DNA of 62,073 bases from a virus (IMGVR_UViG_3300045918_000207:1-62073); one strand, 5' to 3'; positions 12,134 through 54,644 are shown, numbered from the stretch's first letter. Notes: generated by a model not told the origin, from the letters alone. Translations and numbers: made by a program.

Positions 12134-12164
12134 AATAATTAATCTAAACAATAAAAACAAAACA

Positions 12165-12374
12165 ATGACCAAAATAGTAGATTTATCAGACGTATTAACT
12201 ATTGGATTAGAAGATGAATCAATACTTGTTTCTAAGAATGATTATAATTCAGGATGGGTATTAATTGCTCAAACCGATAAAGAAGAACAATGGTTTGATA
12301 TAAAAATAGTACTTAATCCCCCCTACTTAAAAACAGGATACACAATGTATATACTAACTAAACATATTAAATAA
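12165..12374 (+). CDS. Hypothetical protein
   Basis: 69-aa ORF, A-rich leader. Confidence 0.55.
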   Translation: MTKIVDLSDVLTIGLEDESILVSKNDYNSGWVLIAQTDKEEQWFDIKIVLNPPYLKTGYTMYILTKHIK

Positions 12375-12378
12375 GACT

Positions 12379-13216: not shown

Positions 13217-13229
13217 ATAAAAACAATAT

Positions 13230-13529: not shown

Positions 13530-13530
13530 T

Positions 13531-14364: not shown

Positions 14365-14463
14365 ATTAGCATATCACAAGCCAACAGCGTAATTGCGCAA
14401 CGATGTTGGTTTTTTAGGAAACCTTAAAAGGTAGGTAATGGCGCAATCATTATCTGCCTTTTT
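14362..14463 (+). promoter_or_regulatory. Promoter-like element plus double-hairpin leader of the HNH gene
   Basis: TAAATTAG 14362-14369; hairpins 14379-14411 and 14426-14462, both with GCGCAA in the loop. Confidence 0.55.
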
Positions 14464-14468
14464 ATTTT

Positions 14469-15116: not shown

Positions 15117-15158
15117 GTGTTTAATTTTTTGGTATATTTATGCCAAATTGTTACATAA

Positions 15159-34281: not shown

Positions 34282-34899
34282 ATGTGGACTGATTTCTTCG
34301 ATAGAATAATTGTTATTAATCTTCCATCCCGCTTAGACCGTCTATTGCAGGTAACAGAAGAAATGGATAAGTACGGAATAGATTTTGAATTAGTGGATGG
34401 AATGACTTCTGAAATTGGCGGTGCAGAAGGATTACGTTTAACGGTAGAAAAGATATTTAAAGAATCTATTGAAAAGAAACATTCGCATATTTTAGTTTTT
34501 GAAGATGACGTAGTTTTCAATGAGAACCCCAATAGTTTTATGGGGGAAGTAATAAAACAACTACCCGATAATTATTGGATAACCTATCTTGGCGCACAAT
34601 GCACAAGGGGTTTTAAGCGTAGATATTCTGCAAATCTTTTACAGCTTGACGGTGCATTTGCTACACACGCATGGATGATTTCACTACAAGGGATGAAAGA
34701 AATAATTGGGTTAGGATTAGAAGCACCGATAGATAATTTTATAGTAGATAAAATTCAGCCCGCACAAAATTGTTACATAACATTCCCTTTATTAGCAACA
34801 CAACGAGCAGGAATTAGTTCAATAGGCGGTCAATTTATTGAGTGGGATTTTTTTATTACCCCAAGATATTATCAAAAACTTGCAGAAATGCCACAATAA
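34282..34899 (+). CDS. Glycosyltransferase family 25-like
   Basis: VINLPSRLDR, ILVFEDD, ATHAWMIS, PID. Confidence 0.88.
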   Translation: MWTDFFDRIIVINLPSRLDRLLQVTEEMDKYGIDFELVDGMTSEIGGAEGLRLTVEKIFKESIEKKHSHILVFEDDVVFNENPNSFMGEVIKQLPDNYWITYLGAQCTRGFKRRYSANLLQLDGAFATHAWMISLQGMKEIIGLGLEAPIDNFIVDKIQPAQNCYITFPLLATQRAGISSIGGQFIEWDFFITPRYYQKLAEMPQ

Positions 34900-34900
34900 T

Positions 34901-35596
34901 ATGAGAACAATAAGCCTTTGTTTAACTAACTACAATCGTTTAGAACTACTGTTAAAATCATTTGCAGATGTGTATGATGATGAAAGGATAAGTGAAATAG
35001 TAATATCAGATGATGCAAGTGATATTGGAATATACAACGACCTGAAACGGATAACTAATACAATGCCAAAAGTAAAACTGCATCGTAATGGTCATAACAT
35101 GGATTGTTTTGTAAATAAAGCAATATCAATAACACTTGCTACCAACAAATACTGCATCTTACTGGATAGCGATAATCACATAGATAAATCATACATTGAT
35201 GCAATATATGAGTATGAATGGCAGGAAAACGTAGCATTAATGCCCGATTGGGCAATGCCCTTATTTTCATACACAGATTATAGTGGTGTAGTAATAACCA
35301 AAGAAAACATAAGCCAATACATAGATAAGCCAATGCTCGAAACGTGTCTTAATTGTGCAAACTACTTTGTAAACAGAGAATTTTATCTTAACGCATTTAA
35401 TGATAGTGTAGACCCTGTAACTTCTGATAGCCTTTGGCAGAACTATAATTGGCTTTTAAATGGGGGTAAAATACATATAGTTGATGGGTTAAGGTATCAA
35501 CATTTAGTACATGACGGTTCGCACTACAAGATAAATAATTCAAGAACAGGAAATTTTAAGGACATTTTAATCGAAAAGATAAGACTACTTAGTTAA
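34901..35596 (+). CDS. Glycosyltransferase family 2 (GT-A)
   Basis: ISLCLTNYNR, VISDDASD, LLDSDN (DxD); start moved to ATG 34901. Confidence 0.88.
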   Translation: MRTISLCLTNYNRLELLLKSFADVYDDERISEIVISDDASDIGIYNDLKRITNTMPKVKLHRNGHNMDCFVNKAISITLATNKYCILLDSDNHIDKSYIDAIYEYEWQENVALMPDWAMPLFSYTDYSGVVITKENISQYIDKPMLETCLNCANYFVNREFYLNAFNDSVDPVTSDSLWQNYNWLLNGGKIHIVDGLRYQHLVHDGSHYKINNSRTGNFKDILIEKIRLLS

Positions 35597-35605
35597 TATT
35601 GTGTT

Positions 35606-36349
35606 ATGGTAACTTTTACAAACGCAGGTCGTTTTGGGAACTGGTTCATGGAAGCGTGTACGATGTTATCGTATGCAATTAAACATGACTTAGAATTTAC
35701 AGTACCATCCCATTCAGAAAATCCACAATGGAATCCAATTTACGCTTTGCACTTAGTTAATCCAAATTATAATCCTTCACTTGAAACAATACATTTATGG
35801 GAAGGACAGCACAACTACGAACCATTACCATTTGAAGAAAGTTGGAGGCATAAAAACATTTGTATCGAAGGTTACAGACAGACAGAAAAATACTTTGTAG
35901 AACATAGGGATGAAATACTTTACCTTTTGAACTTCCCATACGAAAAGAAAGATAATTTTGTTGGATTGCATTGCAGGTTTGGGGATTACGAGCAATTAAG
36001 AATGAAACACCCTTTAGTTACAAGGGAATATTACGAGAAAGCAATGGCAATGTTCCCTAACTATAAGTTTAAGGTATTTTCAGACGAGATACATAAGGCA
36101 GTAGAACTATTAAAAGGTATTGAAGGATTAGAGTTTTCAAGCAATACAAGTGAAGTAGATGATGCAGTAGAGTTAAGTTGTTGTGAACATCAAATCTGTT
36201 CTGCAAGTACATTTAGTTGGGCTGCAATGTGGATGAATAGAAACAAAGATAAAAAAGTAATATTCCCCGATTTTTGGTTTACCCCTAATTGGGATAATTG
36301 TAACACAGAAGATATAGTTCCTGAATGGTGCATTAAATTAAGTATATGA
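35606..36349 (+). CDS. GT11 alpha-1,2-fucosyltransferase-like
   Basis: GRFGN, EGYRQTEKYF, HCRFGDY, VFSDE, ASTFSW. Confidence 0.9.
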   Translation: MVTFTNAGRFGNWFMEACTMLSYAIKHDLEFTVPSHSENPQWNPIYALHLVNPNYNPSLETIHLWEGQHNYEPLPFEESWRHKNICIEGYRQTEKYFVEHRDEILYLLNFPYEKKDNFVGLHCRFGDYEQLRMKHPLVTREYYEKAMAMFPNYKFKVFSDEIHKAVELLKGIEGLEFSSNTSEVDDAVELSCCEHQICSASTFSWAAMWMNRNKDKKVIFPDFWFTPNWDNCNTEDIVPEWCIKLSI

Positions 36350-36897
36350 TAGTACAACATAGAGTTCAATTAGTTTCTCTTTTGAAAGAACGTAACCTTC
36401 CATTAGTTGCGGTTGAAGTAGGTGTGGCGGAATCAAGGTTTAGTGAAGAATTAATGAACGCAGGATTGGATAAGTTATATTTGGTGGATATATGGCAAAA
36501 AGTACCTTTTATTACAGGATGTGCTTCTTTTGAAGATAGTTGGCACAAGTCTAATGAAGAACAAACAAGAGAGAAGTTTAAAAAAGAAATTAAGGATGGA
36601 AGTGTAGTAATGTTGAAGGGGTTTTCATATCAGATGGCGAAGCATATACCCGACAACTCACTTGGATTAGTTTATATTGATTGTGACCATACATACAATG
36701 GGGTAAGAACAGACATTGATTACTACCTACCTAAATTAGTTAAAGGGGGTATAATGGCTTTCCATGATTATGATAAAAGCAATACAAGTTATGGAGTAGT
36801 TGGTGCAGTAAATGATTTTACAAAAGGACATGGAATAGTAGAAATACACGAAGATGGCAGACCTGAAAATATGGGTGCTTACTTTATAAAAGAATAA
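36346..36897 (+). CDS. Class I SAM methyltransferase (Methyltransf_24-like)
   Basis: VEVGV, LVDIW, VYIDCDHTY, GGIMAFHDY. Confidence 0.9.
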   Translation: MIVQHRVQLVSLLKERNLPLVAVEVGVAESRFSEELMNAGLDKLYLVDIWQKVPFITGCASFEDSWHKSNEEQTREKFKKEIKDGSVVMLKGFSYQMAKHIPDNSLGLVYIDCDHTYNGVRTDIDYYLPKLVKGGIMAFHDYDKSNTSYGVVGAVNDFTKGHGIVEIHEDGRPENMGAYFIKE

Positions 36898-36899
36898 TT

Positions 36900-37622
36900 A
36901 TGGGTTATAAAACAAACGGATGCGATACAGGTAGCATACCAATGTATTTAATTTTACCACTGCTTGAAAAGCATAGTATTCCTTACTTAATTGAAACGGG
37001 TACAGCTAATGGACAATCAGTAAGGGATGCAGCACCATACTTTAAAAAATGCACTACCATAGAATTAATAAGTGATAGACCTGCAATAAAAGATGCACCA
37101 AAAAATATTGAATTTTTAATAGGGCAAAGTGTTGAATTGTTACCTGATATAATTGAAGAATTAAATGAACTAAAACAAACGGAAGGTAACTTAACAGAAA
37201 ATAATGTAAAGCAACAATTCGTTCTTTTCTTTCTTGATGCACACTATTCAGATGATGTACCAAACACAAGTGATATTCCCGAATGTCCTGTACTTGAAGA
37301 AATAAAATTAATAAGTAAATACGGGGATGATGCTATATTATTAATTGATGATTTACGTTTATTTATAGGAAGTACACCATACCCTTGTAATGCTAATGAA
37401 TGGGCTTCACTTGATGATATAATGAACACACTAAGAACACTATTCCCATATCATTACAATACCATTGTTGATGATTACATAATTTCAATACCTGTACACA
37501 TAAAAGAAGTATGGGATAAAGAATGGAGAGATAGATTTGAAATACGTTACCCTTCCGAACAACAAAAACTAAAGGCTAACGCTCAATACGTTTATAAAGA
37601 ATTTTTAAATTATATAAAATGA
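36900..37622 (+). CDS. Class I SAM methyltransferase-like
   Basis: LIETGT.NG, TIEL, FFLDAH, PVLEEI, LIDDLRLF. Confidence 0.75.
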   Translation: MGYKTNGCDTGSIPMYLILPLLEKHSIPYLIETGTANGQSVRDAAPYFKKCTTIELISDRPAIKDAPKNIEFLIGQSVELLPDIIEELNELKQTEGNLTENNVKQQFVLFFLDAHYSDDVPNTSDIPECPVLEEIKLISKYGDDAILLIDDLRLFIGSTPYPCNANEWASLDDIMNTLRTLFPYHYNTIVDDYIISIPVHIKEVWDKEWRDRFEIRYPSEQQKLKANAQYVYKEFLNYIK

Positions 37623-38599
37623 TAAAAAAAATATTGGTAACGGGGTCAAGTGGTTTTATTGGTTCTCACTTAATAAGACATTTTAACAAAACAATGGGGT
37701 ATGTTACTTATGGCATTGATATAGTAGAACCTAAATATGAAAAGCCTGATTATTTTAGTAAAATTGATTTAAGAAAATCAGAAGATGTTCAAAATTATTT
37801 CAGTAGAGAATCTTTTGATGAAGTATATAATTTAGCCTGTTTGATGGGTGGTATGGGATACATCGGGGATAGTTCTCATAGTTATGATATAATGGTTGGA
37901 AGTACCCAAATAGTTTCAAATGTTTTACAAGGAGTTTTGTTTGGGTTAGGTGGTGCATTGAAAAAAACAAAAATGTTTTATAGTAGTTCAGCTTGCGTGT
38001 ATAATATGTACAAACAAGAAACAACGGATAATGTTTCATTGAAAGAAGAATATGCCTATCCTGCAATGCCTGATTTAGTGTATGGATGGCAGAAACTACA
38101 ATCAGAAATAATGTATCAGGCAGCACATGAACAACATGGGTTAGATATAAGAATTGCACGTTTCCATAATATTTTTGGTGAAGAAGGAACATGGGATGGT
38201 GGTAAAGAGAAGTATCCTGCCGCTATATGTAGAAAATGTGCTATGTCAAAAAACGGTGATACTATTTCTATTTGGGGTGATGGATTGCAAACACGTTCTT
38301 TCCTACACGTTTCAGAATGTATTACAGGTATAATGAAATTGATGGATAGCAATGTAATTGAACCGTTAAATATTGGAAGTGATGAATTAGTATCGGTTAA
38401 TCAGGTAGCTGAAATGGTTATCAAACTTTCAGGTAAGGATTTAAAAATAGAACATGATTTAACCAAACCACAAGGAGTAAGAGGACGTAATAGCAATAAC
38501 GAATTAATATTTCAGAAATTAGGATGGAAACCTGAAACAAAATTGATTGATGGGTTACGGTCAACCTATAACTGGATTTCAAAACAAGTAAACGGATAA
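37619..38599 (+). CDS. GDP-mannose 3,5-epimerase-like extended SDR
   Basis: TGSSGFIG, MGGMGYI, SSACVY, YGWQK, RFHNIFG..GTWDGGKEK.PAA, WGDGLQTRSF, GVRGRNSNN. Confidence 0.9.
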   Translation: MIKKILVTGSSGFIGSHLIRHFNKTMGYVTYGIDIVEPKYEKPDYFSKIDLRKSEDVQNYFSRESFDEVYNLACLMGGMGYIGDSSHSYDIMVGSTQIVSNVLQGVLFGLGGALKKTKMFYSSSACVYNMYKQETTDNVSLKEEYAYPAMPDLVYGWQKLQSEIMYQAAHEQHGLDIRIARFHNIFGEEGTWDGGKEKYPAAICRKCAMSKNGDTISIWGDGLQTRSFLHVSECITGIMKLMDSNVIEPLNIGSDELVSVNQVAEMVIKLSGKDLKIEHDLTKPQGVRGRNSNNELIFQKLGWKPETKLIDGLRSTYNWISKQVNG

Positions 38600-38603
38600 G
38601 TAT

Positions 38604-39239
38604 ATGATGCTACCATTTAAAGAATTAATTGCAAAGCATAACCTGAATATTACAGGTGTTTGCCATTTAGGTGCAAATGCAGGACAAGAAAGATTTATAT
38701 ATGATGAACTAATAAATGGCAAAGTGCTATGGGTAGAAGCTATACCTATTGTAGCACATCAACTAATTGATAATTTAAAGCCTTTCCCAAAACAAAGTGC
38801 ATTACAGTCTTGTTTAAGTGATACCGATGGCGAAGTAGTTGCATTTAATATATCAGATAATGAATCCCAAAGTTCAAGTATGCTTAAATTCGGTGTACAT
38901 GAAATTATTCACCCAAATGTAACTTTTATTGATACTATAAGGTTAGTTACTGATAGATTTGATACTTTGATTAGTTCATTGAAAATGGATATATCAGGGC
39001 TGAACTTATTATCGCTTGACGTTCAGGGAAGTGAGTTGAAAGTTTTAAAAGGAATGGGCAATTACTTACAACAATTCGATTATATAATTTCAGAAATTAA
39101 TTCAGTAGAAACTTATCAAGGTTGTGCATTAGTGGGAGAAATAGATGAATTTCTTTGGGATTACGAAAGAGTTGAAACAGGTGAATTAGTTGGTGGGGCA
39201 TGGTCGGATGCCTTGTACTGCAAAAAGAAACTTATATGA
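38604..39239 (+). CDS. FkbM-family methyltransferase
   Basis: HLGANAGQE, VEA, SSSML, LDVQGSELKVLKG, SEI...Y.G, WSDALY. Confidence 0.9.
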   Translation: MMLPFKELIAKHNLNITGVCHLGANAGQERFIYDELINGKVLWVEAIPIVAHQLIDNLKPFPKQSALQSCLSDTDGEVVAFNISDNESQSSSMLKFGVHEIIHPNVTFIDTIRLVTDRFDTLISSLKMDISGLNLLSLDVQGSELKVLKGMGNYLQQFDYIISEINSVETYQGCALVGEIDEFLWDYERVETGELVGGAWSDALYCKKKLI

Positions 39240-40096
39240 TATACGTACCTGATTACCTAAAGCCACATATCAATACCAACTATCCCGAAAGTAATAAACT
39301 TATCTTTGAGGAATGGCTAACGCAACAAACATTGCCCGAATTAGAACGTGAGTTTATTCCAATACACATTACTGCATACCACGTAAATAATTCTTACGGA
39401 CAAGATAGAGAATGTATATACAAACTACAAGAGTTCTTTGATGGGTTAGATAGAAGTAAAAAGTATTGGTGCGTATGGCAGTATGACGATGGACTTTTAA
39501 TTGATACCAAAGACTTAGATATAGTAACCTTTGGTATGTCTTATAGATTACCTGAACAAAAACCTACTTATGTTATACCATTGATAGGACAGATGGGGGA
39601 TAGGTTAATTAAAGAGAAAAAATATAAAGCAAGTTTTATAGGAAGTCGGACACATCCGATAAGGGATGAAATAGTTTCAGCATTAAATAATAGAAAAGAG
39701 TATTTCGTTTCAACCGAGCAATTTAGACCACAGGATTATTTTGAAATAATGGCTGAATCAGTATTTACTATTTGCCCAAGAGGATATGGATTGCCAAGTT
39801 TCAGAACTTTTGAAGCAATACATAATTATTCTATTCCAGTATATGTATCTGATGAATTTATGATACCTTACGGTAAAGATTTTAGTGAGTATGGTGTTAT
39901 AGTTCGTTCTGATGAAATAGCAATTTTACCCGAAATATTATCGTCTTTCTCCCAATATACCATTAATCAAAAAATGAAACGAATGGAAGAATTATATTGG
40001 TGGTTATGTACCTATGAGGGAGTAAAGGATAGGATTATTCAAACATTGAATTTACATGATGCATCAGAAAAGTACGAAAGATTAAAACATATATAA
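39236..40096 (+). CDS. Exostosin-like glycosyltransferase (GT47)
   Basis: ASFIGS.THPIR, SVFTICPRGYGLPSFRTFEAI...IPVYVSD; start moved to the ATGA overlap at 39236. Confidence 0.88.
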   Translation: MIYVPDYLKPHINTNYPESNKLIFEEWLTQQTLPELEREFIPIHITAYHVNNSYGQDRECIYKLQEFFDGLDRSKKYWCVWQYDDGLLIDTKDLDIVTFGMSYRLPEQKPTYVIPLIGQMGDRLIKEKKYKASFIGSRTHPIRDEIVSALNNRKEYFVSTEQFRPQDYFEIMAESVFTICPRGYGLPSFRTFEAIHNYSIPVYVSDEFMIPYGKDFSEYGVIVRSDEIAILPEILSSFSQYTINQKMKRMEELYWWLCTYEGVKDRIIQTLNLHDASEKYERLKHI

Positions 40097-40097
40097 A

Positions 40098-40466
40098 ATG
40101 ATGTTTGAAAATGGTGATATATTGAAAGTAAAAGTAGCAAGTCATTCCCATGTCATTGAGCCATATTATGTTTTAGTTGAAAATGGCGGTGGTGACGGTT
40201 TTTCATTTACTACAAGTATTCCGAATGTAATGAAAAGACTTTGGTGTAATTCAAAAGCCCCTGAATATGAATACCATAAAGATAGATGTTCAAAAGTTGG
40301 TACAATGGAAACACATGGATATTTATTATACAATCAAAAATTAAGAATGAATGGTAAGACAATATATTCCGCAAATACTACATGGTGGTCATTCCCCAAG
40401 AATACCAATTTTATTAAAAGAATTAGAGCAGCAGGGAATATCAGACTACAAAATATGGGAAGGTAA
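40098..40466 (+). CDS. Hypothetical protein inside the glycan cluster
   Basis: 122-aa ORF overlapping the next gene by 116 bp. Confidence 0.45.
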   Translation: MMFENGDILKVKVASHSHVIEPYYVLVENGGGDGFSFTTSIPNVMKRLWCNSKAPEYEYHKDRCSKVGTMETHGYLLYNQKLRMNGKTIYSANTTWWSFPKNTNFIKRIRAAGNIRLQNMGR

Positions 40467-40914
40467 ACACGATAAGGATTCAGTAGTGAAAGCAATCAAT
40501 TTATCTCATAAAATGATAGTTGAAGATGCCTTAGAGCAAGGGTTGGAGTTTACTATAATTTTCGAGGACGACATTAAATTTACAGATATTGGTGCATGGG
40601 ATTACTTCTTAGCCAACAAACCAAAATCATTTGACCTTTACTTAGGTGGTATTTATTTAGGGGATATTTTACCCGACAATACCGTAAAATCATTCACAGC
40701 ATTACATTGCTATATTATCCATTGTAAGTTCTACTCCACTTTCCTTTCTACTCCCGATAACATCCATATAGACAACTCATTAGCTAATTTAGGGGATTAT
40801 CATGTATGTAACCCTATGGTAGCAATTCAATATGGTGGCTACTCATCAAACACAGGTAAGGACGAAACCTACGATAACCTTCTCCAAAACAGGGTACTTT
40901 ACACTAAAAATTAA
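40351..40914 (+). CDS. Glycosyltransferase family 25-like (second copy)
   Basis: INLSHKMIV, IIFEDDI, FDLYLGG, ALHCYII, HID. Confidence 0.8.
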   Translation: MVRQYIPQILHGGHSPRIPILLKELEQQGISDYKIWEGKHDKDSVVKAINLSHKMIVEDALEQGLEFTIIFEDDIKFTDIGAWDYFLANKPKSFDLYLGGIYLGDILPDNTVKSFTALHCYIIHCKFYSTFLSTPDNIHIDNSLANLGDYHVCNPMVAIQYGGYSSNTGKDETYDNLLQNRVLYTKN

Positions 40915-41001: not shown

Positions 41002-43437
41002 TTGGCAAGTACGTCCCCTTATAATTACCCTGATGCCTCGATAGACCCCCGCAAAAAGGGGCTTGAATGGCTTATAAAATACGCAAATGCGGCTTTTTAT
41101 GACCGTAAAGGTTACCAACCATTGTCAATCAATCAGGCGACAATAGGTAACCAAAAAATGTCTGAAATAAGGCTTTACTCATTAGGTAAGCAGCCTATTA
41201 ACAAATACAGAAAGATACTTACAGGAACAGAACAGGAAGATAATACATGGCTTAATTTAGATTGGTCAGTAGCTAATATCCTTTCAAAATTCAGAGAAAT
41301 AGCCATTTCAAAGATAATGCAGGTCATGTACGATGTACAGGCAAGTGCAGTAGACCCAATGTCACGTACCATAGAAGATGAATATTTTAACAAGATGAAG
41401 GTTAAAATAATGATGCGTCAGGCAGCAGAACAAGCAGGTAATCAGGAATTAGCCCAACACCCAATGTTAAAGGCTCAAACAGGTGAACCCGAAGATGAAG
41501 AACAGCTACAAATAGATATGGAATATGGCTACAAGACCGAAATGGAAATGGAAGCCGAACAAGCCATAACATTAATTCTCCAACAAAACGATAGCGAAGA
41601 ATACCGCAAAAGCACCATTGAAGATTGGTATGATTTCGGTATTGCAGGGTATAAGCAATGGATTGATGAAAATGGGATGGTGAAATTCAGGGCAGTAAAA
41701 CCTGAAAATCTTGTTATTTCATACTGCCAAAACAGAAACTTTTCGGATGCAGTACACATGGGAGAAGGAATACAGGTACAAGTTAATGACTTAGTACCTT
41801 TTTTCACACGTGACCAAATAATTTATATATGCAAAAATATAGCAGGTAAATGGGGTAATCCTGCATCCTTCACACCAACAGTAGATAGGTTTTGGGATAG
41901 CTTTAAGGTACTTGTTTTTGACCTTGAGTTAATCACATGGAACACATACGTTTATAAGGATGAAATAGACGGAAGGGGTAATGAAAGGTTTGGTAAAACA
42001 GCCTACGAAAACCTGCAATTTGTAAAGGGTGGGCAATCAAAAGAAGATGCAGAATACTTAGCACCAATGGAAGATTCTGCACAGAAACAAGGTTCAGCTA
42101 CACCTAAATACATGAACATTACCAAAAAAGTAAAGTATAAAATTAAGTGGATAGTAGGAACAGATTTTGCCTATGATTATGGTGAAGCAGAAAACCAACC
42201 ACGTAAACTTTCTTCATGGTGGGATACACAACTTAACTACCATTGCTACGCATGGAACTTTAATAAAATGATGTTTAGTGGTATTACTGAAAGGCTTATA
42301 CCTATTCAAGATAACTACCAATTAACATGGATGCGTTTACAGAACCTTAAAGCAAAACTTATCCCGTACTTAATTACATTGGATTTGGATGCTTTGGAGA
42401 ATGTAGCATTGGGTAAGGGTGGGGAAGATATGACACCAAAAGAAATCGTAAACTTCATGTTTGAAAATAACGTGTTCGTTTATAGAAGTGGTGAAGTATT
42501 TAGTGGTAAGCAAGCCAACTATAACCCCGCAGCAATATTGCCATCAGGACAATTACAAGCCTTTACACAACTATACGAAGATTTGCGTTTCTCTATTCAA
42601 CAAATGAGAGATATATCAGGGTTGAATGAAGTTACAGACGGTAGTTCACCTAACGCAAAAATGCTTACCACAGGATTAGAACTTGCTAATCAAGGAACAA
42701 ACAATGCCATATACATGATAATGGATGCCGATAGGAAATTATTGGGTAAGCATTATGATGGTATCATGCAGAACATACAGATAGCAGTTAAGTTAGGTAA
42801 GGTTGAAGGGTACGTAAAAGCATTGGGTACAGGTACAGTTAGATTCTTGAATATTAGCCCCGACATTGCATTATCTGAATTTGGAATATTTGTTAATCCA
42901 GTACCAACAGCAGAAGAAAGACAACAGCTTATCGCTGAACTTAATTTAAAGGATAGTCAAGGCTTAATAGACCCCGCAGATAAGATAACAGTAATGACTT
43001 GCACCAACTTAAAACAGGCTGCAAAATTACTTGCTTACAGGGTTAAAAAACGTCAAGAACAGCAGCAGCAATTTGCACTACAACAGACCCAAGTTAAGCA
43101 ACAAGGGGATGCACAGATAGCTATGCAGATTGAACAAATGAGGCAGCAGACTATAATGATGCAAACACAAGGCACATTACAAATAGAAAACTTGAAAGGT
43201 GAGTGGATGTATAAGACTGAAATGATGAAGAAAACAAGTGACCAAACAGAAGCACAAATACAAGCAGAATCCAAAACAGTAGGTAATCAAATTCAGGCAG
43301 AAGCTAAAAAAGAAGCAGCACATATAGCAGCAGGTAGTCATTTAGCAGGTACACATTTGAAAGGACAGGCAGATTTACTAATGACTGAAATGGATAATAA
43401 CACAGCAAAAGAAACTGCTAAGAAAAAAACAGCTTAA
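41002..43437 (+). CDS. Portal protein (large, crAss-like/Bacteroidota podovirus type)
   Basis: 811 aa; WLNLDWS, ERLIPIQD.YQLT, RDISGLNEVTDGSSP; Gln-rich C-terminal coiled coil; TTG start. Confidence 0.85.
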   Translation: MASTSPYNYPDASIDPRKKGLEWLIKYANAAFYDRKGYQPLSINQATIGNQKMSEIRLYSLGKQPINKYRKILTGTEQEDNTWLNLDWSVANILSKFREIAISKIMQVMYDVQASAVDPMSRTIEDEYFNKMKVKIMMRQAAEQAGNQELAQHPMLKAQTGEPEDEEQLQIDMEYGYKTEMEMEAEQAITLILQQNDSEEYRKSTIEDWYDFGIAGYKQWIDENGMVKFRAVKPENLVISYCQNRNFSDAVHMGEGIQVQVNDLVPFFTRDQIIYICKNIAGKWGNPASFTPTVDRFWDSFKVLVFDLELITWNTYVYKDEIDGRGNERFGKTAYENLQFVKGGQSKEDAEYLAPMEDSAQKQGSATPKYMNITKKVKYKIKWIVGTDFAYDYGEAENQPRKLSSWWDTQLNYHCYAWNFNKMMFSGITERLIPIQDNYQLTWMRLQNLKAKLIPYLITLDLDALENVALGKGGEDMTPKEIVNFMFENNVFVYRSGEVFSGKQANYNPAAILPSGQLQAFTQLYEDLRFSIQQMRDISGLNEVTDGSSPNAKMLTTGLELANQGTNNAIYMIMDADRKLLGKHYDGIMQNIQIAVKLGKVEGYVKALGTGTVRFLNISPDIALSEFGIFVNPVPTAEERQQLIAELNLKDSQGLIDPADKITVMTCTNLKQAAKLLAYRVKKRQEQQQQFALQQTQVKQQGDAQIAMQIEQMRQQTIMMQTQGTLQIENLKGEWMYKTEMMKKTSDQTEAQIQAESKTVGNQIQAEAKKEAAHIAAGSHLAGTHLKGQADLLMTEMDNNTAKETAKKKTA

Positions 43438-44565: not shown

Positions 44566-45909
44566 ATGTCAAGTTACGGTAATATAACCAAATCGTATGT
44601 GTCTGCCGTTGACCCTGTAATTGATACAAGGGAAATCAACAAAAATGTAGCCGATGTAAACAATCAGGACTACTTAACAGACATAATGAACTGGGGCGAC
44701 AGAAAAAAAGTAATCGCCACAGGTCAACCAATTTACTACACTTTCGTAAATGAAAGCGTATTCAAAAAAGTAACTGTTACATCAGTAACAAGTGGTAGTG
44801 GAACAACTACTCTTATTCTTGTATTGACAGCAGCTACATCAGGTCAAACTAAAGTTCAGGACTTGCTGAAATTCACAGATAATAATGTGGGTATCGTGTA
44901 TGCAGTATCTACTTCATCAGGGGTTGATACTATCACAGTTAAGAGTGTTGCAGGTGCAAACATCGTTTGTACAGCAGCAGATAAATTAGCTGTATTTTCA
45001 GTTGCAATGGGTGAAAGAAGTGATGCTCCATCAAACGAGCGTTTCGGATTAACCCGTTACTCTAACAAGTATCAAATTTTCTCTGTAACATCTGAAATTA
45101 CAGACGTTCAAAATGCAGCTACCGTAGAGGTAGACTTTGAAGGTCAACCTAAATGGGTAGTTAAAGACCACATTGAGAAGAAATTGAAACTTAAAGGAGT
45201 AGTTAATGCTGCATTTATCGGTGGTGATATTTCAGTTACTTCATTCTCTGATACCAACCCTTACTTAGTTGACCAAAACATCGTAACAGGTGGTGGTGGT
45301 AGCGGTGCAGTACAGACCACAAGAGGTACTGATAAGTATTGCGAATTATACGGTACTACCCTTAATACAGGTGGTGGTGCTTATACCATTGGTGCAGTAG
45401 ACGATGCTTTGGATAACCTTACAGCATTGAAAGCACCTACTGACTACTTAGTAGTTGGTGGTAAAAAAGCCCGTAGAAAAGTTGATACTTTTTGGAAAAA
45501 TCTTGGTTCTTCAGGGGTAACTTCTGTACGTCTTAACATTGACGGAAAAGAACTGGATTTGGAAGTAGATAAAGTGGATTATGGTGGTTATTCACTGCAC
45601 TACATGACAATGCCTATTTTGGATAACCCTGATATGTTCTCCGAAGTAGTTATCTCAAAATCTCTGTACTACATGCCATACAACGCAAGCGTTAAGGTAA
45701 TGGGCGGTGGTTTTGAACCTGCAATGCAGATTCGTTATGTACCTGCACAGAATTTGTACGGTAGTGAAATGATTGGTGAAACCCATAGCGGTGCATTATC
45801 TCCAATTAATCCTAACGGAACAGTTCAGGAGTGGAAAATGATTTACACTACCAAACAAGGTAATGAAATCTTAGCCCCTTCATTCTTGTTACGTCAGCAA
45901 GTTAGTTAG
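44566..45909 (+). CDS. Major capsid protein
   Basis: 447 aa after scaffold; NKYQIF...EITD, TTRG; biased codon use; downstream terminator. Confidence 0.85.
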   Translation: MSSYGNITKSYVSAVDPVIDTREINKNVADVNNQDYLTDIMNWGDRKKVIATGQPIYYTFVNESVFKKVTVTSVTSGSGTTTLILVLTAATSGQTKVQDLLKFTDNNVGIVYAVSTSSGVDTITVKSVAGANIVCTAADKLAVFSVAMGERSDAPSNERFGLTRYSNKYQIFSVTSEITDVQNAATVEVDFEGQPKWVVKDHIEKKLKLKGVVNAAFIGGDISVTSFSDTNPYLVDQNIVTGGGGSGAVQTTRGTDKYCELYGTTLNTGGGAYTIGAVDDALDNLTALKAPTDYLVVGGKKARRKVDTFWKNLGSSGVTSVRLNIDGKELDLEVDKVDYGGYSLHYMTMPILDNPDMFSEVVISKSLYYMPYNASVKVMGGGFEPAMQIRYVPAQNLYGSEMIGETHSGALSPINPNGTVQEWKMIYTTKQGNEILAPSFLLRQQVS

Positions 45910-47948: not shown

Positions 47949-50900
47949 ATGAAAAAAACATTAATACTACTAAGTTTTATTTTAGCAGCAGTAGCTTTAT
48001 TTTCTTTTAAGAGTGGAGTTGGTAAAATGCCAACTTCTTCTTTAGATACTTTTATTAATAAGCTATCAGTAGGTGCAGCTACTACTTTATATTATAGCAA
48101 GGGTGGTTTACAGGGGGATTCAGCATTAATACTTCCTAAAAATAGTTTTGCAGATACCACAGCAGCTAATTTTAGTCGTGCAGCAGCATACAATGGTAGT
48201 CTTATATTAGTAGGTAGTGATGTTTGGGTAAGAACATTAAACCCTAATCGTTGGAATAAATTTGCGACAAGTAGCGGCGGTGCTTATGTTTTGGTAGCAG
48301 ATACATCAACAATGTTATTGCCATATTTAAGAAAAACTGATACTGCCTATATGCTTGCAAACAGATTGAAAATATCTGATACTGCTAATATGTTAGCTAA
48401 CCGTTTGAAGATAAGTGATACTACTAATATGATGAGTGGGTATTTAAGAAGTGGCAATGCTAAAAATGGTACAGTAACAAATGTTTCAGGTACAGGTGCT
48501 TTATCCTTTGCAAATGCTACTACTACACCCGTAGGAACTATTGATACATCATGGGCAGACGGATTGACTACAAGGAAAAGGATGCGTCAAATAGCAGATA
48601 GCTTACAAGCAAATATTACGGCTTCCGTTACAGGGGTAAGTTCCTTTGCTTTTACAAATGCAAATGGTATTTCAGGTTCAGTAGCTACGCCAACAACCAC
48701 ACCAAATCTTACATTAAGTTTAGGTGATATTACTCCTACATCAGTAAATGCAAGCGGTAATATTACAGCAACAAATTTCTATGGTAATGGTGCAACATTA
48801 AGTGGTATAGAAAGATACACGGATACGGCATCATTAGTAGCACCTTATTTACGTAAAAGTGATACAGCGTATATGTTGAGTAACAGACTTAAAATATCTG
48901 ATACTGCTAATATGCTTACGGGGTACACAAGGGTATTAAGATTTACTGATTCATTAAGTGCAATACAAGGTAGAATACAAACTAAGTTAGCTATATCAGA
49001 TAGCCTTACAGGTGGATATACTTCTTGGCTTTTAACAAAGAAAAAAATAGATAGTTTAGGAACAGTAATTGGTACAAAAGGAACGGGTACATTAACATCG
49101 GCAGCATTAATATTGCCTTCTTTTATTACAGTATCAGGTTCGCCAATAACTACATCAGGAACATTTGTTGGTACGTTAGCAAATCAAACTGCTAATAAAG
49201 TGTTTGCTTCTGCTACATCAGGTGCAGCAGCACAACCAACATTTCGTGCATTAGTAGCAGGTGATATACCTGCATTGCCTTATGTGTTAATTTCAGATAC
49301 AGCAGCAATGCTCGCAGGGGTAACATTAGATAGGGTTTTAACAAATGGTAATACAAGTAGCAGGGATGCAACAGTAGGAATGTTTACGGCAACAACAAGA
49401 CCTACATTATACACCCCAACAATAAGAGTAGGAACTTTATCGGGTTCATCTAATACATCTACTCAAACAGGATTAAATATAAGTACAGATTACAATGATG
49501 ATTTAATCGAATCAGGTCACGGTATAGCGGTTAGAGATAAATGGAGAGTAACAGGTATGCCTTATGCAAGTGCTGATTTTAGTACAACTTTTACAGGGTC
49601 AACTACTTTGCGTGACCATGCAATAGGTGTGCAGGTAACACCGAGTGATAGTTCAGTAGCATTGAATTTCACAAATCTAAACGGGTATAATTACACTCCT
49701 CACATGGCAGCTACTACTACCGATTCCATTGTAGGGTTTAAAATGTCCTCTTTACAAATAGGAACAGCCAGTTACAAAGCGGCTTTATTATCAAACGATA
49801 ACACAGCCATTATTGATATTGGTGGTAGATATAAGTCACGTTCTGCCCCTGTTGGTTATGCAACAGGATTTAAAACAGGTGGATGGTTAGATAGTATACC
49901 AATTTATAATCACCCTACCATTGGTTCATTTCAGTATAATACAACATCATGGCCTTCGACAGACGCTGCACAATTAAGAGGGAGGGCGTTATTTAATTCA
50001 GATGCCTTTTTTATTTGGAATAATACGACAGTAGCACCGGGCGTTCAAACTATTTTTGAGATGGGTTCTCCCAATGGGTTAGGTGCTAATAGGCTTTCAG
50101 GTATGTTATTTAAAACCGTTTTATACAACCAATACACAGGGGCAGCACAATTACAGCAGTACACAAGTAAATCAGATGGAACTTTTGGGTTATGGTCAAC
50201 CGTAGATAGTTTGCAAAAGGTAACATCATACGGTATTGATAGTTATGATAATAATAAACATTCGCAGTTTGGAACATATACAAAGGTAGATAAGTCTTAC
50301 GTTGATAGCGTTATTACTGCAAGCCCTTCGGGAACAGTTACAAGCATAGCAACAAATACAGGTAGTGGTATTACAGGTGGAACTATTACATCTACGGGAA
50401 CTATTGCAGCAGATACTACCACCACTCTTTCTACTAAAGCTAATGTTACTGCCCTATTATTAGGTAAGTTAAATTTGAGTGATACTGCTTCTATGCTTTC
50501 TAACTTATTACGTAAAACAGATACATCATTAATGCTTTCTCCGTATGTAAATTACGCAGGTAGTGGATTAACTAAATTAGGTCAATCATTGAGATTAGGT
50601 GGGTTATTAAGTCAAAATGCAATAGTAACGGATAGTACATTCTCAATGGTCTTTTCTAACACTAAAAAAATAAATAATAGTTCAAAATTTGGGGTGAACG
50701 GGGAACTTAATTTATGGGGTGTGACATCAGACGATAACACACAAAATTTATATTCAGGTGGGTATAATTCGATGTCTGTTAATTCAGCAGCATCGTATAA
50801 CCTTAATTATAAAAGTGTGTACGGGGCAAATGTAAATGCACTATTTATGAACAATACAGGTTCAGTAAGTGGTGGTAGCCCTATTGCATCATCAGTAGCT

Positions 50901-51875
50901 TGGGGGTTATTTGCTAATACAGGAACAATAGCTAATGCAGTTGGATTCCATATAAAACCACCTGCACAATTATTTGGTGGAACAACAGTAAGTAATAAGA
51001 TAACAACTTATGCAGGATTACAAATTGATAATTTAAGAGATAGTTCAGATATTCAAAGTAATGTGCAGAATATGTATGCTATCAACCAAAAAGGGGTACA
51101 TGATACTTCATTATTCAATGGTATAATTACAGGAAATATAATCAATGCAAATACCTTAGGTGGTACACTTTCAACAGCAGCCCAAACAAACATAACATCT
51201 ATCGGTGTACTACCCGCAAATACTACGGGTCTGCAAATGGATTTTAGTTCTATTGGTATTCAGTCTTATTCATTAAATGATGCTTGGATAGGGGATAACA
51301 TTTATTATAATGGGGGGTTTAAATATACAAGAACAGGAACAATAGGGCGTGTTTATTTTTCAGGTGGGGGTATTCAATTAGGGGTAGCAGCATCGGGAAC
51401 AGCAGGTTCAGCAGCATCAATTACTCCCGGTATAACTATCGCAGCAACCACAGCGAATACTACTATTAATACATTAGGAACAGGAACAGTACAAGCTACC
51501 GCAGGGGTACTATCTGTTATTTCTGATAGTAGGGTTAAGACTAAACATGGATATTTTAATGGAAGTGCTTTAGATGCCGTAATGAAAATAAATAAACCTC
51601 AATATTGGAACTACAATCAAAAAAGTAAATTACCAATAGAGGCACAAAAAGTAAAACAATTCGGTCTATTTGCTGATAGTGTACACTACGCATTAGGCGA
51701 ACAGTTTGCACCAACAGGGAAGGATGGATACTACTCATTAGCAGATAGGGCTTTACTTTCATTAACCATTCAGGCTTTACAGGAAAAAAGTAAGAAAGAT
51801 GATTTGAAATTTGCTGATTTACAAGATAAGTACGATGCACTATTACAGAGAATCATAAAACTGGAAAAGAAATGA
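47949..51875 (+). CDS. Trimeric fibre protein with signal peptide, DTAxML repeats and C-terminal peptidase-S74 intramolecular chaperone
   Basis: MKK + hydrophobic core N-terminus; SDSRVK..GLFADSV..LTIQALQE..coiled coil; GTVTS fibre motifs. Confidence 0.85.
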   Translation: MKKTLILLSFILAAVALFSFKSGVGKMPTSSLDTFINKLSVGAATTLYYSKGGLQGDSALILPKNSFADTTAANFSRAAAYNGSLILVGSDVWVRTLNPNRWNKFATSSGGAYVLVADTSTMLLPYLRKTDTAYMLANRLKISDTANMLANRLKISDTTNMMSGYLRSGNAKNGTVTNVSGTGALSFANATTTPVGTIDTSWADGLTTRKRMRQIADSLQANITASVTGVSSFAFTNANGISGSVATPTTTPNLTLSLGDITPTSVNASGNITATNFYGNGATLSGIERYTDTASLVAPYLRKSDTAYMLSNRLKISDTANMLTGYTRVLRFTDSLSAIQGRIQTKLAISDSLTGGYTSWLLTKKKIDSLGTVIGTKGTGTLTSAALILPSFITVSGSPITTSGTFVGTLANQTANKVFASATSGAAAQPTFRALVAGDIPALPYVLISDTAAMLAGVTLDRVLTNGNTSSRDATVGMFTATTRPTLYTPTIRVGTLSGSSNTSTQTGLNISTDYNDDLIESGHGIAVRDKWRVTGMPYASADFSTTFTGSTTLRDHAIGVQVTPSDSSVALNFTNLNGYNYTPHMAATTTDSIVGFKMSSLQIGTASYKAALLSNDNTAIIDIGGRYKSRSAPVGYATGFKTGGWLDSIPIYNHPTIGSFQYNTTSWPSTDAAQLRGRALFNSDAFFIWNNTTVAPGVQTIFEMGSPNGLGANRLSGMLFKTVLYNQYTGAAQLQQYTSKSDGTFGLWSTVDSLQKVTSYGIDSYDNNKHSQFGTYTKVDKSYVDSVITASPSGTVTSIATNTGSGITGGTITSTGTIAADTTTTLSTKANVTALLLGKLNLSDTASMLSNLLRKTDTSLMLSPYVNYAGSGLTKLGQSLRLGGLLSQNAIVTDSTFSMVFSNTKKINNSSKFGVNGELNLWGVTSDDNTQNLYSGGYNSMSVNSAASYNLNYKSVYGANVNALFMNNTGSVSGGSPIASSVAWGLFANTGTIANAVGFHIKPPAQLFGGTTVSNKITTYAGLQIDNLRDSSDIQSNVQNMYAINQKGVHDTSLFNGIITGNIINANTLGGTLSTAAQTNITSIGVLPANTTGLQMDFSSIGIQSYSLNDAWIGDNIYYNGGFKYTRTGTIGRVYFSGGGIQLGVAASGTAGSAASITPGITIAATTANTTINTLGTGTVQATAGVLSVISDSRVKTKHGYFNGSALDAVMKINKPQYWNYNQKSKLPIEAQKVKQFGLFADSVHYALGEQFAPTGKDGYYSLADRALLSLTIQALQEKSKKDDLKFADLQDKYDALLQRIIKLEKK

Positions 51876-52712: not shown

Positions 52713-53075
52713 ATGCAACAGCAACCTAATATGTTAATCGCTTTTTTGCAGGAATTACTGCAACGTTTTTTCACTAAGTCCCCAAAGTTTTTCAGGATAT
52801 GGCAAACAATAACTGCTATTGCAGCAGCTATTACAGGTATCCCCGAAGCATGTGCTTACTTCGGTATTACCTTACCTGATTCAGTAACTATATTGCAAAA
52901 TAAATTCATTGCAGCAGTAAGTACAGGTATGTTTATTATGTCTGCCTTAACAACCCAAAGTAAAACAACAGGTGATTCCGTTAATGGACAGCCATTAAAA
53001 ATTACAGATGCCAAATCTCTACCATTTACTTCTGCACAAGAAATTAAAAAAACAGAAGAAAATAAACCATTATGA
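52713..53075 (+). CDS. Putative holin
   Basis: RFFTKSPKFF followed by two hydrophobic segments. Confidence 0.7.
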   Translation: MQQQPNMLIAFLQELLQRFFTKSPKFFRIWQTITAIAAAITGIPEACAYFGITLPDSVTILQNKFIAAVSTGMFIMSALTTQSKTTGDSVNGQPLKITDAKSLPFTSAQEIKKTEENKPL

Positions 53076-53740
53076 GAAAGCCTGACCTTAATCCTTTTGT
53101 AGTTAAATGGGGTCTTTTTTTTATACTCCTAATAGCTACATTCTTTTTTATAATGTCTATGTTTTTAAGTGGGTGTAATGCTGAAAAACGGGCAGTACGA
53201 AAGCAAGACAAAGCATACGGAATAACGGTTTCTACTCCCCGTACATTCGCACAAGCGGGTGCAAATTGGTTAGCTATCCACCCTTGCATTACCCCAATTA
53301 TAAAGGATAGTATCATATTCCATACCGATACTTTAGTAGCAGAAAAGAAAGTATTTATCCCAATCAAAACAATCCAGTTCAAAGAAAAAATACTTGATAC
53401 CATAATAGATAACATATCAATATATGCAGATAGCTTGGGTATTACAGTAAAGAACTTACAAGAAGCTATCACTAATACCAAAACAATCATTCAAACAAAG
53501 GTTGACCAAACAAGAGTAAATAACTTAACCGATAGCCTTAATTCAGAAAAAAGAACTTCGGCAACAAAGGATGGTATTATCCAAACAATTAGTGAGAACA
53601 ATTCAGGGCTAAAAAAATCAAATACTAATCTTTGGTGGTTAGTAGTAGCAATATCAGTAGCAGGTGTATTGTCTCACGTTATCAGAAGTTACGCTACGGG
53701 TTGGTTTAGTTCGGTTAAAGGGCTGTTTAAAAAATCGTAG
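53072..53740 (+). CDS. Putative unimolecular spanin
   Basis: Lipobox FLSGC after a signal region, beta/coiled-coil body, C-terminal TM WWLVVAISVAGVL. Confidence 0.7.
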   Translation: MRKPDLNPFVVKWGLFFILLIATFFFIMSMFLSGCNAEKRAVRKQDKAYGITVSTPRTFAQAGANWLAIHPCITPIIKDSIIFHTDTLVAEKKVFIPIKTIQFKEKILDTIIDNISIYADSLGITVKNLQEAITNTKTIIQTKVDQTRVNNLTDSLNSEKRTSATKDGIIQTISENNSGLKKSNTNLWWLVVAISVAGVLSHVIRSYATGWFSSVKGLFKKS

Positions 53741-54359: not shown

Positions 54360-54644
54360 TTATTTAATAGTGGTAAAAAATGATTTTACAAAATATAGTG
54401 AATCAGACTTCCAATACTTATCCAAATCTTCATGTTGTCTTTGTCTTACTCCACCCATATAATACCCTGCTTTTAAAATATCCATTGCTTTGCTTTGATT
54501 GATTGTATCATAATGAGTGTAAAGCGTACCCGTTCCTAATGATTTGTATGTAGGGGCTGCCTTAAATAAATTATCATTATCCAATACACAAAACACAGCA
54601 CATGATGTAAGGATACACATAAATATTACAATAGTTGTTTTCAT
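54360..54644 (-). CDS. Exported/membrane hypothetical protein
   Basis: MKTT + hydrophobic segment with LTSC. Confidence 0.55.
   Translation of the reverse strand: MKTTIVIFMCILTSCAVFCVLDNDNLFKAAPTYKSLGTGTLYTHYDTINQSKAMDILKAGYYMGGVRQRQHEDLDKYWKSDSLYFVKSFFTTIK

Follow-up and report, generated by a model that had tools for sequence, protein, structure and literature searches.

A phage fibre gene with an export-type leader and Bacteroidota O-glycosylation sequons, a candidate for fibre maturation outside the cytoplasm

Textbooks place the assembly of tailed phages in the cytoplasm. To our knowledge, all the tailed phages studied so far assemble their fibres there, the S74 fibres of T5, GA-1 and S16 carry no leader, and there is no route from a periplasmic fibre to a cytoplasmic particle. 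Glycosylated virions occur among mycobacteriophages, in which the phage glycosyltransferase genes adjoin the structural genes; the capsid and tail-tube proteins concerned are modified in the cytoplasm and are not known to carry export signals or a sequon of the kind considered here. Outside phages, the mosaic adhesive trimer (MAT) fibres of Bdellovibrio bacteriovorus show that proteins combining a signal peptide with an S74 domain can fold after export (PMC10769870). For the general O-glycosylation system of Bacteroidota, enrichment of the sequon is limited to exported proteins (PMC8729774, PMC12871550, PMC8550257), and phages of Porphyromonas gingivalis are reported to encode five functionally uncharacterised Q-rule signal-peptide genes, whose products are believed there to modify the envelope of the host (PMC10367356). 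Supplementary gene lists and glycoproteome site lists apart, no paper found in the literature searches describes a Sec signal peptide on the tail fibre of a phage; the word "phage" is absent from a 2025 review of O-glycosylation, which hence discusses no phage protein.

Here, we analyse a fibre gene in a viral DNA stretch of 62,073 nucleotides (the window). Our main reading, with a probability of roughly 0.55, is that its product is a trimeric fibre that would be carried from the cytoplasm by the host Sec system and then O-glycosylated.

The fibre gene and its leader

The gene and the parts of its product are as follows.

47949..51875, + strand: fibre open reading frame, 1308 aa plus stop, no cysteine
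47949..48008, + strand: signal-peptide-like leader, residues 1-20 (MKK, hydrophobic core, A-V-A at 14-16)
48045..48287, + strand: phage-specific N-terminal domain, residues ~33-113 (alignment A2; 121 cluster representatives)
48294..48458, + strand: repeat block 1, 13-residue S/T-D-T-x-x-M-L units, D at 118, 131, 144, 157
48816..48938, + strand: repeat block 2, D at 292, 305, 318
48939..49073, + strand: degenerate D-S-L modules, D at 334, 351, 368, every one a strict sequon
49071..49298, + strand: motif of ~75 residues common to fibres of unrelated phages, residues 375-450 (tblastn, 5 phage records)
50475..50558, + strand: repeat block 3, D at 845 and 858
51522..51872, + strand: S74-type intramolecular chaperone with putative catalytic Ser1192 and Lys1197 (SDSRVK), by profile

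The frame opens at the first start codon after a stop, 12 nt from the end of the upstream gene, and its N-terminal residues read MKKTLILLSFILAAVALFSFKSGVGK. The chance that it is no real gene, or an assembly artefact, is negligible: no point in support of this was found, and it is contradicted because homologues (41-80% identity, on many contigs) and synteny in the related phage loci L004 and L006 exist; moreover, the open frame spans 3.9 kb, and the copies of its DNA repeat are merely 79% alike. As a whole, the protein matched no Pfam family, no NCBIfam family and nothing in a PDB sequence search, and it hit PHROG 33119, "long tail fiber distal subunit", weakly (E=0.0068). A megablast search with 22 kb matched zero phage records, tblastn with residues 1-180 gave no phage record even at E≤5 and no isolate with the same N-terminus, and the ESM Atlas hits, all scoring ≤0.85, are leads at best. 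Scanning IMG/VR with the single protein returned one distant locus, and with an alignment four.

The initial annotation had called the N-terminus Sec-like, and its composition bears this out. The leader, MKK followed by LILLSFILAAVALFSF, has a charged start and then a hydrophobic core of the length (7-15 residues) and position (the first ~25) looked for. Its hydrophobicity reaches 2.98 (Kyte-Doolittle, 12-aa window), the same level as in the membrane proteins and lipoproteins of this phage, and no other open reading frame of the structural module shares that value. Here and below, leaders were called by a heuristic of hydrophobicity and charge, and cleavage sites were read by eye. By eye, A-V-A at 14-16 fits a signal peptidase I site (AVA|S in relatives), yet it lies inside the hydrophobic stretch; it could be such a site, or the leader could serve as an uncleaved signal anchor. 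AlphaFold2 models residues 2-19 as a helix, within a fold of the N-terminal 113 residues whose pLDDT of 60 is too poor for use.

The leader persists across relatives despite sequence divergence. The domain that follows it, with G52, D57, D69, T70, A73, N74, Y81, R95 and W102 invariant in alignment A2, lies 10-60 residues from the start in 115 of the 121 cluster representatives, and 113 of these 115 have a charged hydrophobic leader, the remaining two having a miscalled or cut start; such homologue counts are inflated through shared descent. A small-x-small-Gln site is present in 96 of the 113 leaders, and four more have Ile at -3, which brings those with Gln at the predicted +1 to ~100; the leaders of loci L004, L006, L007 and L050 all end in KAQ or YSQ. 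Gln at +1 is what the Q-rule describes for substrates of signal peptidase I in Bacteroidota (PMC5837995), and this match in the relatives supports the N-terminus as a real export signal. The fibre of the window belongs to a subclade (13 of the 113) that lacks the +1 Gln and has a 15-residue insert behind the hydrophobic core, so its own cleavage is the least certain in the family. From the leader we infer a location outside the cytoplasm, and we regard export of the fibre as probable.

The N-terminal domain was found in one of 301 Chitinophagaceae genomes sampled and in none of five Sediminibacterium genomes. A captured host gene was rejected as an origin, since the domain is absent from nearly all the host-family genomes sampled.

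Alternatively, the protein could be an ordinary cytoplasmic tail fibre, of the kind known from all studied tailed phages, whose N-terminus is a buried attachment helix or is skipped at Met27 and whose D-T-A motifs are a structural by-product. A GGAG does lie 8 nt upstream of the Met27 codon, and three of the six fibres examined have a Met at codons 25-27, which together make a second, cytoplasmic form possible in this phage. However, the position is Leu in the close relatives P0003, P0004 and P0006, and in the L006 fibre and the second L004 fibre codon 1 is the sole in-frame start-type codon within the first 45. Met27 as the true start, one of the conditions under which the initial annotation would have fallen, is thus rejected for the family. 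A small-x-small-Gln site kept by ~100 of 113 relatives would likewise have no purpose in a buried helix. Together with the sequon data below, these observations leave an ordinary cytoplasmic fibre quite improbable in our estimate.

Repeats, sequons and neighbouring genes

A recount reproduced exactly the 21 D[ST][AILVMT] sequons among 30 D[ST] dipeptides that had been counted by hand. Residue shuffles gave 6.8±2.4 and 15.2±3.3, respectively, and 0 of 5000 reached either observed value. The 13-residue spacing claimed earlier was also recovered (D at 131/144/157, 292/305/318 and 845/858). In the DNA, block 1 contains a 39-nt tandem repeat at 48335-48431 (2.5 copies, 79% matches); the degenerate D-S-L modules recur in homologues. 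Among 612 distinct repeats, position 3 is A in 55%, S in 19%, T in 11% and L in 10%, and 492 form a strict sequon. Under the extended O-glycosylation motif, as defined in PMC8729774, 610 of the 612 qualify, as do 28 of the 30 D[ST] sites in the window fibre.

Much of the enrichment comes from conserved repeat modules that may serve a purely structural purpose, and sequons lying mostly in repeats would suit a cytoplasmic fibre. However, once the ten core repeats were taken out, 13 sequons were left against 5.5±2.2 expected (P=0.0012). The phage's other 82 open reading frames hold 53 sequons where 47.0 are expected, and the comparison with cytoplasmic proteins that the initial annotation had proposed ranks the fibre first (z=5.35). 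Two further genes and one gene cluster bear on its setting.

53072..53740, + strand: exported lipoprotein with a C-terminal membrane helix, spanin-like, 5 sequons vs 0.8 expected
34282..40914, + strand: sugar-gene cluster encoding GT25-like, GT2 and GT11 proteins, two methyltransferases, an epimerase/dehydratase and GT47

The lipoprotein, second after the fibre in sequon enrichment (z=4.8), provides an internal control for it; lipoprotein homologues adjoin fibres in L004, L005 and L007. The top scores thus fall on products with export signals, which argues against a cytoplasmic fibre, with the exception of ORF 52713-53075, which reaches z=3.4 though a hydrophobicity scan gives it no export signal. 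ORF 54360-54644, which does have a signal, comes fifth (z=2.3).

Leaders and repeats also go together. Among homologues, 53 of the 58 with at least three repeats have a leader, against 15 of the 62 without repeats, and four of the five leaderless ones begin inside the protein or its repeats. The pattern R-L-K-I-S-D-T-A-x-M-L was found in 41 stretches from 185,579 species genomes, and by the heuristic 26 of the 27 such reading frames with a visible N-terminus have a leader. This near-constant pairing (53/58; 26/27) is difficult to reconcile with a cytoplasmic fibre. With 39 of the 41 stretches labelled Bacteroidota, the S-D-T-A-x-M-L repeat is nearly confined to that phylum, and its matches include cellular proteins, two of which sit among housekeeping genes of isolates; the host family is likely Chitinophagaceae. 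Two observations point the other way: the second signal-bearing fibre of L004 has just 2 sequons in 1440 aa, and no leader was seen in the large ORFs of two elemovirus-like loci.

The products of the sugar-gene cluster are all without export signals in the hydrophobicity scan. The co-occurrence of signal-bearing fibres with glycosyltransferase clusters held in both related phage lineages examined: L004 and L006 have an FkbM methyltransferase and a GT47 (plus a weak GT25) upstream of the portal gene. The cluster is possibly linked to the fibre. As for the exported, glycosylated fibre put forward at the outset, conservation of the export signal and sequon enrichment both came out in its favour; translocation, cleavage (at a site without the +1 Gln), O-glycosylation and attachment to the virion are steps that we infer.

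C-terminal chaperone, proposed pathway and role

The S74 chaperone named in the initial annotation was recovered in part, by profile, although Pfam PF13884 itself stayed below threshold (E=0.013, 16.2 bits, cut-off 22). Ser1192 and Lys1197, in the SDxxxK spacing (SDSRVK), are invariant in alignment A3 with six other C-termini, four of which come from proteins listed with PF13884. Against the PDB, profile A3 matched the solved chaperone domains 6f45 (7.2e-13), 8jov (2.2e-7), 7dc3 (1.2e-6) and 3gud (0.0022). AlphaFold2 gave the last 129 residues a mean pLDDT of 55, again too poor for use, and was confident only at the last helix.

Ahead of the tip, the shared motif (~70 residues by tblastn) is also present in annotated fibres of other phages; homologues P0013, P0022 and P0036 score Pfam DUF5907, the window protein falling short of significance. 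In P0002, P0003, P0004 and P0006, the first ~450 residues are common and the rest differs, as expected of exchangeable C-termini. The gene sits between head genes and likely lysis genes, and the same order is found in a complete 33-kb phage. Because the N-terminal domain is conserved, the C-termini are swapped and the gene lies next to lysis genes, a receptor-binding fibre of the phage is the most likely role of the protein.

The main rival to a virion fibre is an adhesive trimer that is exported but stays apart from the particle, a phage-borne counterpart of the MAT fibres or of the host repeat proteins. Its architecture (signal peptide, N-domain, stalk, tip, S74) does match MAT fibres, its stalk is common to cellular exported proteins encoded among housekeeping genes, and one host protein gives a weak match to Bdello_MAT_N; the P. 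gingivalis Q-rule proteins, reported as presumed modifiers of the host envelope (PMC10367356), offer a parallel. Furthermore, a conserved tail module lies at 15-23 kb, away from the fibre gene, and includes a 1191-aa tail protein homologous to an elemovirus structural protein (1493 aa). Against this, the N-domain is phage-specific in the genomes sampled, the gene is retained in all relatives seen at a cost of 6% of the present genome and 11% of the complete 33-kb phage, and tip swapping resembles host-range evolution, no second fibre with a matching tip having been seen. Nor did an NCBIfam sequence search of the window fibre and six relatives detect a type IX (T9SS) C-terminal sorting domain. 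On balance, we consider an adhesin outside the virion unlikely. Such an adhesin would work within the envelope, at the infected cell's surface or after release from it, and could mask the receptor, block superinfection, keep progeny off debris or make infected cells stick to new hosts.

Two candidates were set aside: T9SS cargo, in the absence of the sorting domain by NCBIfam, and the elemovirus 1493-aa protein as a fibre homologue, its match being the window's 1191-aa protein (ORF 17215-20790), which is a conserved tail protein and not a fibre by any search run.

In the exported and glycosylated virion fibre that we favour, the order from N to C terminus would be signal, an N-domain nearly restricted to phages, repeat stalk, shared motif, variable tip and S74 chaperone, with an S-D-T-A-x-M-L stalk that also appears in exported proteins of the likely host family. 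The host Sec system would take the protein out of the cytoplasm by way of a signal peptide or signal anchor, the S74 chaperone would drive trimer folding and then cleave itself, and periplasmic host O-glycosylation would load the D-S/T-x sites (21 strict, 28 extended). The fibre would meet the capsid-tail particle only when lysis or holin lesions let the contents of periplasm and cytoplasm mingle. To this whole chain of export, glycosylation and a virion role, judged from sequence, we would give somewhat less than an even chance. It is tempting to speculate further that a large, undescribed class of Bacteroidota phages, comprising no fewer than 113 clusters (50% identity) and three or more unrelated genome types, builds its receptor-binding fibres in the periplasm. 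Such phages would combine Sec export, a pyroglutamate cap and a host O-glycan on a stalk borrowed from host surface proteins; the glycosyltransferase/methyltransferase cluster may edit the glycan in the present lineage, and docking of fibres on the particle would have to wait until the inner membrane has been opened by the holin. We regard this broader proposal as rather doubtful.

If the main reading is true, a fibre family with an obligatory export signal would add an extracytoplasmic step to virion assembly, and host secretion and glycosylation would become part of virion maturation. It would also offer a reason, open to test, for sugar-gene clusters in phage genomes, connect the fibres of phages with the adhesive trimers that bacteria export, and predict glycan-coated fibres, which would matter for the host range, the stability and the engineering of phages in Bacteroidota. 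Even an adhesin outside the virion would be a new kind of phage-borne envelope factor.

Comparison with described systems

The T5 L-shaped fibre (8hqz), the GA-1 neck appendage (3gud) and the S16 long tail fibre (6f45) share with the window protein the Ser/Lys chaperone and a modular build. Cellulophaga phage phi38:1 encodes an S74 fibre, gp085, beside its endolysin, much as the window fibre lies near likely lysis genes; unlike the latter, gp085 and gp087, which are related podovirus fibres, have no leader, a point in favour of cytoplasmic assembly. Like substrates of Bacteroidota O-glycosylation (PMC8729774, PMC12871550, PMC8550257), the window fibre has an export signal together with D-(S/T)-(A/I/L/V/M/T) motifs. 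The P. gingivalis phage products are likewise predicted to be cut so as to expose an N-terminal Gln, and their description does not name them as fibres (PMC10367356).

MAT fibres resemble the window fibre in having a signal peptide, a conserved N-domain directly after it, a phage-fibre-like stalk and a variable tip, and 13 of 21 members have an S74 chaperone with SDxxxK (PMC10769870). They differ in being encoded by a predatory proteobacterium rather than a phage, and the MAT descriptions examined mention neither 13-residue repeats nor sequons, both of which the window fibre has. The NCBIfam model of the MAT N-domain, NF053851, did not match the window fibre. By analogy, the window fibre would resemble MAT fibres in its working while not being a member of their family.

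The fibre gene and its genome

The window of 62,073 bp, which is the entire record of this genome, comes from a tailed phage; a search for a terminal repeat found none. No close relative occurs among 50,697 phage records, and the portal is ~25% identical to those of Flavobacteriia podoviruses (Cellulophaga phages phi38:1 and phi13:2, and Flavobacterium elemoviruses). Besides a DnaB helicase, the window holds these features:

11276-12133 (+), SPFH/Band-7 lipoprotein
13531-14364 (+), 277-aa protein with a Cpn10 domain at its C-terminus
15-23 kb, conserved tail module, whose 1191-aa protein matches a 1493-aa elemovirus structural protein
23576-31825 (+), 2749-aa giant protein
32174-34276, large terminase
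34282-40914 (+), sugar-gene cluster between terminase and portal (GT25-like, GT2, GT11, two methyltransferases, epimerase/dehydratase, GT47)
41002-43437, portal
44566-45909, major capsid protein, SU10-type
47949-51875 (+), fibre, 1308 residues

The fibre, whose N-terminus reads MKKTLILLSFILAAVALFSFKSGVGK, opens at the first start codon of its frame, with a stop codon 12 nt before it. The initial annotation had credited it with a Sec-like start, 21 sequons, 13-residue repeats and an S74 (intramolecular chaperone) end; the first three were confirmed and the last stands in part. The whole protein matched no Pfam family, and its last 159 residues scored below the PF13884 threshold (E=0.013, 16.2 bits, cut-off 22). 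Ser1192 and Lys1197 (SDSRVK) show no variation when the fibre is aligned with six further C-termini, of which four belong to proteins with a PF13884 listing. The profile built from this alignment matched solved chaperone domains, from phage fibres as well as from MYRF (6f45 at 7e-13, then 8jov, 7dc3, 3gud and 8hqz).

Leader conservation and probable export

Leaders were called heuristically, by a hydrophobicity-plus-charge rule and evolutionary comparison. The first 26 residues of the fibre are nearly unchanged in four close homologues (P0002, P0003, P0004 and P0006), three of which carry Leu at the position of Met27; Met27 is thereby ruled out as the true start of the family. In more distant relatives the leaders are very unlike in sequence, yet all have signal-peptide form, with small-x-small followed by Gln (SFGQ, SIGQ, GYGQ, SFSQ, GYSQ). 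When the mature N-domain, the phage-specific region after the leader (residues 27-125), was used as query in an exhaustive search, 121 cluster representatives were returned. The domain begins 10-60 residues from the N-terminus in 115 of these, the others being three fragments and three internal occurrences; 113 of the 115 passed the leader rule, and the remaining two have miscalled or truncated starts. A small-x-small-Gln site is present in 96 of the 113, and four more have Ile at -3; Gln at +1 is reported as a hallmark of Bacteroidota signal peptidase I substrates (PMC5837995, PMC10653852). The window's own subclade (13/113) is without this Gln and has a 15-residue insert between hydrophobic core and N-domain. 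In the window's fibre the predicted leader may be cleaved at A-V-A (14-16) or kept as an anchor.

A GGAG lies 8 nt 5' of Met27 (48013-48029), and a Met at codon 25-27 recurs in the fibres of two other phages (L007 and L050), making a second start that yields a cytoplasmic form possible in the window phage. No such Met occurs in the L006 and L004 fibres. Within codons 1-45 of the L006 fibre and of the second L004 fibre, no in-frame ATG, GTG or TTG follows the start codon, which makes a leaderless form impossible for these two. We regard an ordinary cytoplasmic fibre as quite unlikely, and export as probable and well supported by this comparative evidence.

Sequons, repeats and sugar genes

The hand count of strict sequons, D-[ST]-[AILVMT], proved exact: 21 among 30 D-[ST] dipeptides. 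Permuting the fibre's own residues (n=5000) gave 6.8±2.4 sequons and 15.2±3.3 dipeptides, and no shuffle reached either observed value. Under the extended glycoproteome motif D-(S/T)-(A/I/L/V/M/T/S/G/F/C) reported in PMC8729774, 28 of the 30 sites qualify. The 13-residue repeats were borne out, with D at 131/144/157, 292/305/318 and 845/858, and are old, since their DNA copies, with a 39-nt period, match at only 79%. With the ten core repeats removed, 13 sequons are left against 5.5±2.2 expected (P=0.0012), and several of these belong to another conserved module, I/V-D-S-L.

Across the other 82 window ORFs there are 53 sequons in total, where shuffling predicts 47.0. The fibre has the highest z-score (5.35), followed by ORF 53072-53740 (+) (4.8; 5 sequons versus 0.8 expected), ORF 52713-53075 (3.4; no export signal by hydrophobicity scan), ORF 3285-3665 (2.4; one sequon, without leader) and signal-bearing ORF 54360-54644 (2.3). 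Portal, capsid, scaffold-position and terminase proteins lie at or under expectation, and the giant protein has 0 strict sequons versus 6.5±2.5 expected (z=-2.6). This distribution is what would be expected if selection acts only where glycosylation machinery reaches. That the fibre is both exported and O-glycosylated appears reasonable, with the odds slightly in its favour. The 222-aa product of 53072-53740 resembles a one-piece spanin, combining a lipoprotein signal (FLSGC) with a membrane helix at the C-terminus; its homologues adjoin signal-bearing fibres in L004, L005 and L007.

Among 120 homologues of fibre residues 1-500, which share descent and are not independent counts, a leader occurs in 53/58 with at least three repeats versus 15/62 without repeats; four of the five leaderless repeat-bearing homologues start inside the protein or its repeats. 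Scanning one genome per species (185,579 species) with a back-translated R-L-K-I-S-D-T-A-x-M-L pattern matched 41 stretches, 39 of them labelled Bacteroidota: Sediminibacterium (14), Chitinophagaceae (9), "Chitinophaga pinensis" MAGs (6), Ferruginibacter (1), Bacteroidota or Bacteroidetes (8) and Sphingobacteriia (1). Of the remaining two, one is named just "bacterium" and one comes from a MAG labelled Caulobacter; the latter's 65-kb contig (L041), the sole match under a non-Bacteroidota name apart from the "bacterium" label, is phage-sized and may be mis-binned. For 27 repeat ORFs the retrieved DNA includes the N-terminus; 26 of these have a leader, most ending A-Q. Two isolates carry their repeat ORFs amid housekeeping genes: the neighbours are an antiporter and a transporter in S. 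salmoneum, and fusA and genes for ribosomal proteins in S. ginsengisoli. No relatives of the phage structural genes were found at the bacterial repeat loci. The phage therefore shares this repeat module with exported proteins of Chitinophagaceae, which likely points to that family as host. Position 3 of 612 distinct repeats is A in 339, S in 117, T in 67, L in 63, V in 15, I in 7 and another residue in 4, giving 492 strict sequons and 610 extended-motif sites. Cellular proteins in L042, L020 and L048 (Sediminibacterium or Chitinophagaceae genomes) hold ~95-126 D-T-x-x-M-L cores in reading frames of ~1900-2500 residues and look like very long exported fibrils.

In L004 (490-2551) and L006 (148-2974) the portal is preceded by an FkbM methyltransferase and a GT47, with a weak GT25 match. 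The cluster therefore accompanies the fibre in the lineage of the window, L004 and L006; the 20 kb of L007 examined contain no glycosyltransferase. According to a 2025 review, the outer O-glycan is species-specific, made on a lipid carrier by cytoplasmic glycosyltransferases and often methylated; the review makes no mention of phages. The phage cluster possibly edits the host O-glycan, but it may just as well alter the surface polysaccharide of the host.

Place of the fibre and comparison with known systems

The main rival to a virion fibre is an exported adhesin outside the virion. The N-domain is absent from five Sediminibacterium genomes with repeat proteins and occurs in one of 301 sampled genomes of the family, on a small contig; being phage-specific, it favours a virion role. 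The order portal, scaffold-position gene, capsid, three small genes, fibre is kept in two IMG/VR lineages (L004 and L006) with portals ~50% identical to the window's, and fibre C-termini are exchanged among close relatives. Two complete phages, L007 (72 kb) and L050/G307 (33 kb, terminal repeats), each carry a signal-bearing fibre, although the window's tail protein has just a distant homologue in L007 and none in L050; in L050 the fibre is a 1258-aa repeat protein, the sole ORF above 700 residues, directly 5' of a lipoprotein and an endolysin. In phi38:1 (L054), an S74 fibre (gp085) and a tail protein (gp087) also lie by the lysis genes. Gene order, C-terminal swaps, the complete-phage fibres and the phi38:1 layout would all speak for a virion fibre.

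Against it speak the leaderless state of gp085, gp087 and, at two elemovirus-like loci, of the large ORFs, the separate tail module at 15-23 kb, and the searched phage isolates, none of which carries the fibre N-terminus. We also know of no route from a periplasmic fibre to a cytoplasmic particle; given the hole sizes known for holins, we propose that the two could meet by mixing of cytoplasm and periplasm once holin lesions form. The adhesin appears less likely, and the full chain of export, glycosylation, virion role and late docking is our preferred, unproven reading, at a probability of about 0.4.

Some details of these loci stand apart. The last 90 residues of the L050 fibre match the final part of a PHROG annotated as polysaccharide deacetylase. 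In phi38:1, gp085 (4784-7714) and gp087 (8192-9523) have a common N-terminus, MARIKNT..., and gp085 is recorded without a structural label, its neighbours being labelled structural. L004 has tandem signal-bearing fibre-like genes (9941-11326 and 11336-15658), the second encoding 1440 aa with only 2 sequons.

In the literature searched, supplements aside, no paper describes a Sec signal on a tail fibre. Q-rule proteins of unassigned function are reported to be encoded by phages of P. gingivalis (PMC10367356). In architecture the fibre comes closest to the Bdellovibrio MAT fibres, a family reported to combine a signal peptide, a conserved N-domain directly after it, a phage-like stalk and variable tips, with S74 in 13/21 (PMC10769870); S74 fibres are therefore able to fold after export. 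The MAT N-domain model gave no match to the window fibre, and whereas MAT fibres are cell-encoded, the window fibre is phage-encoded.
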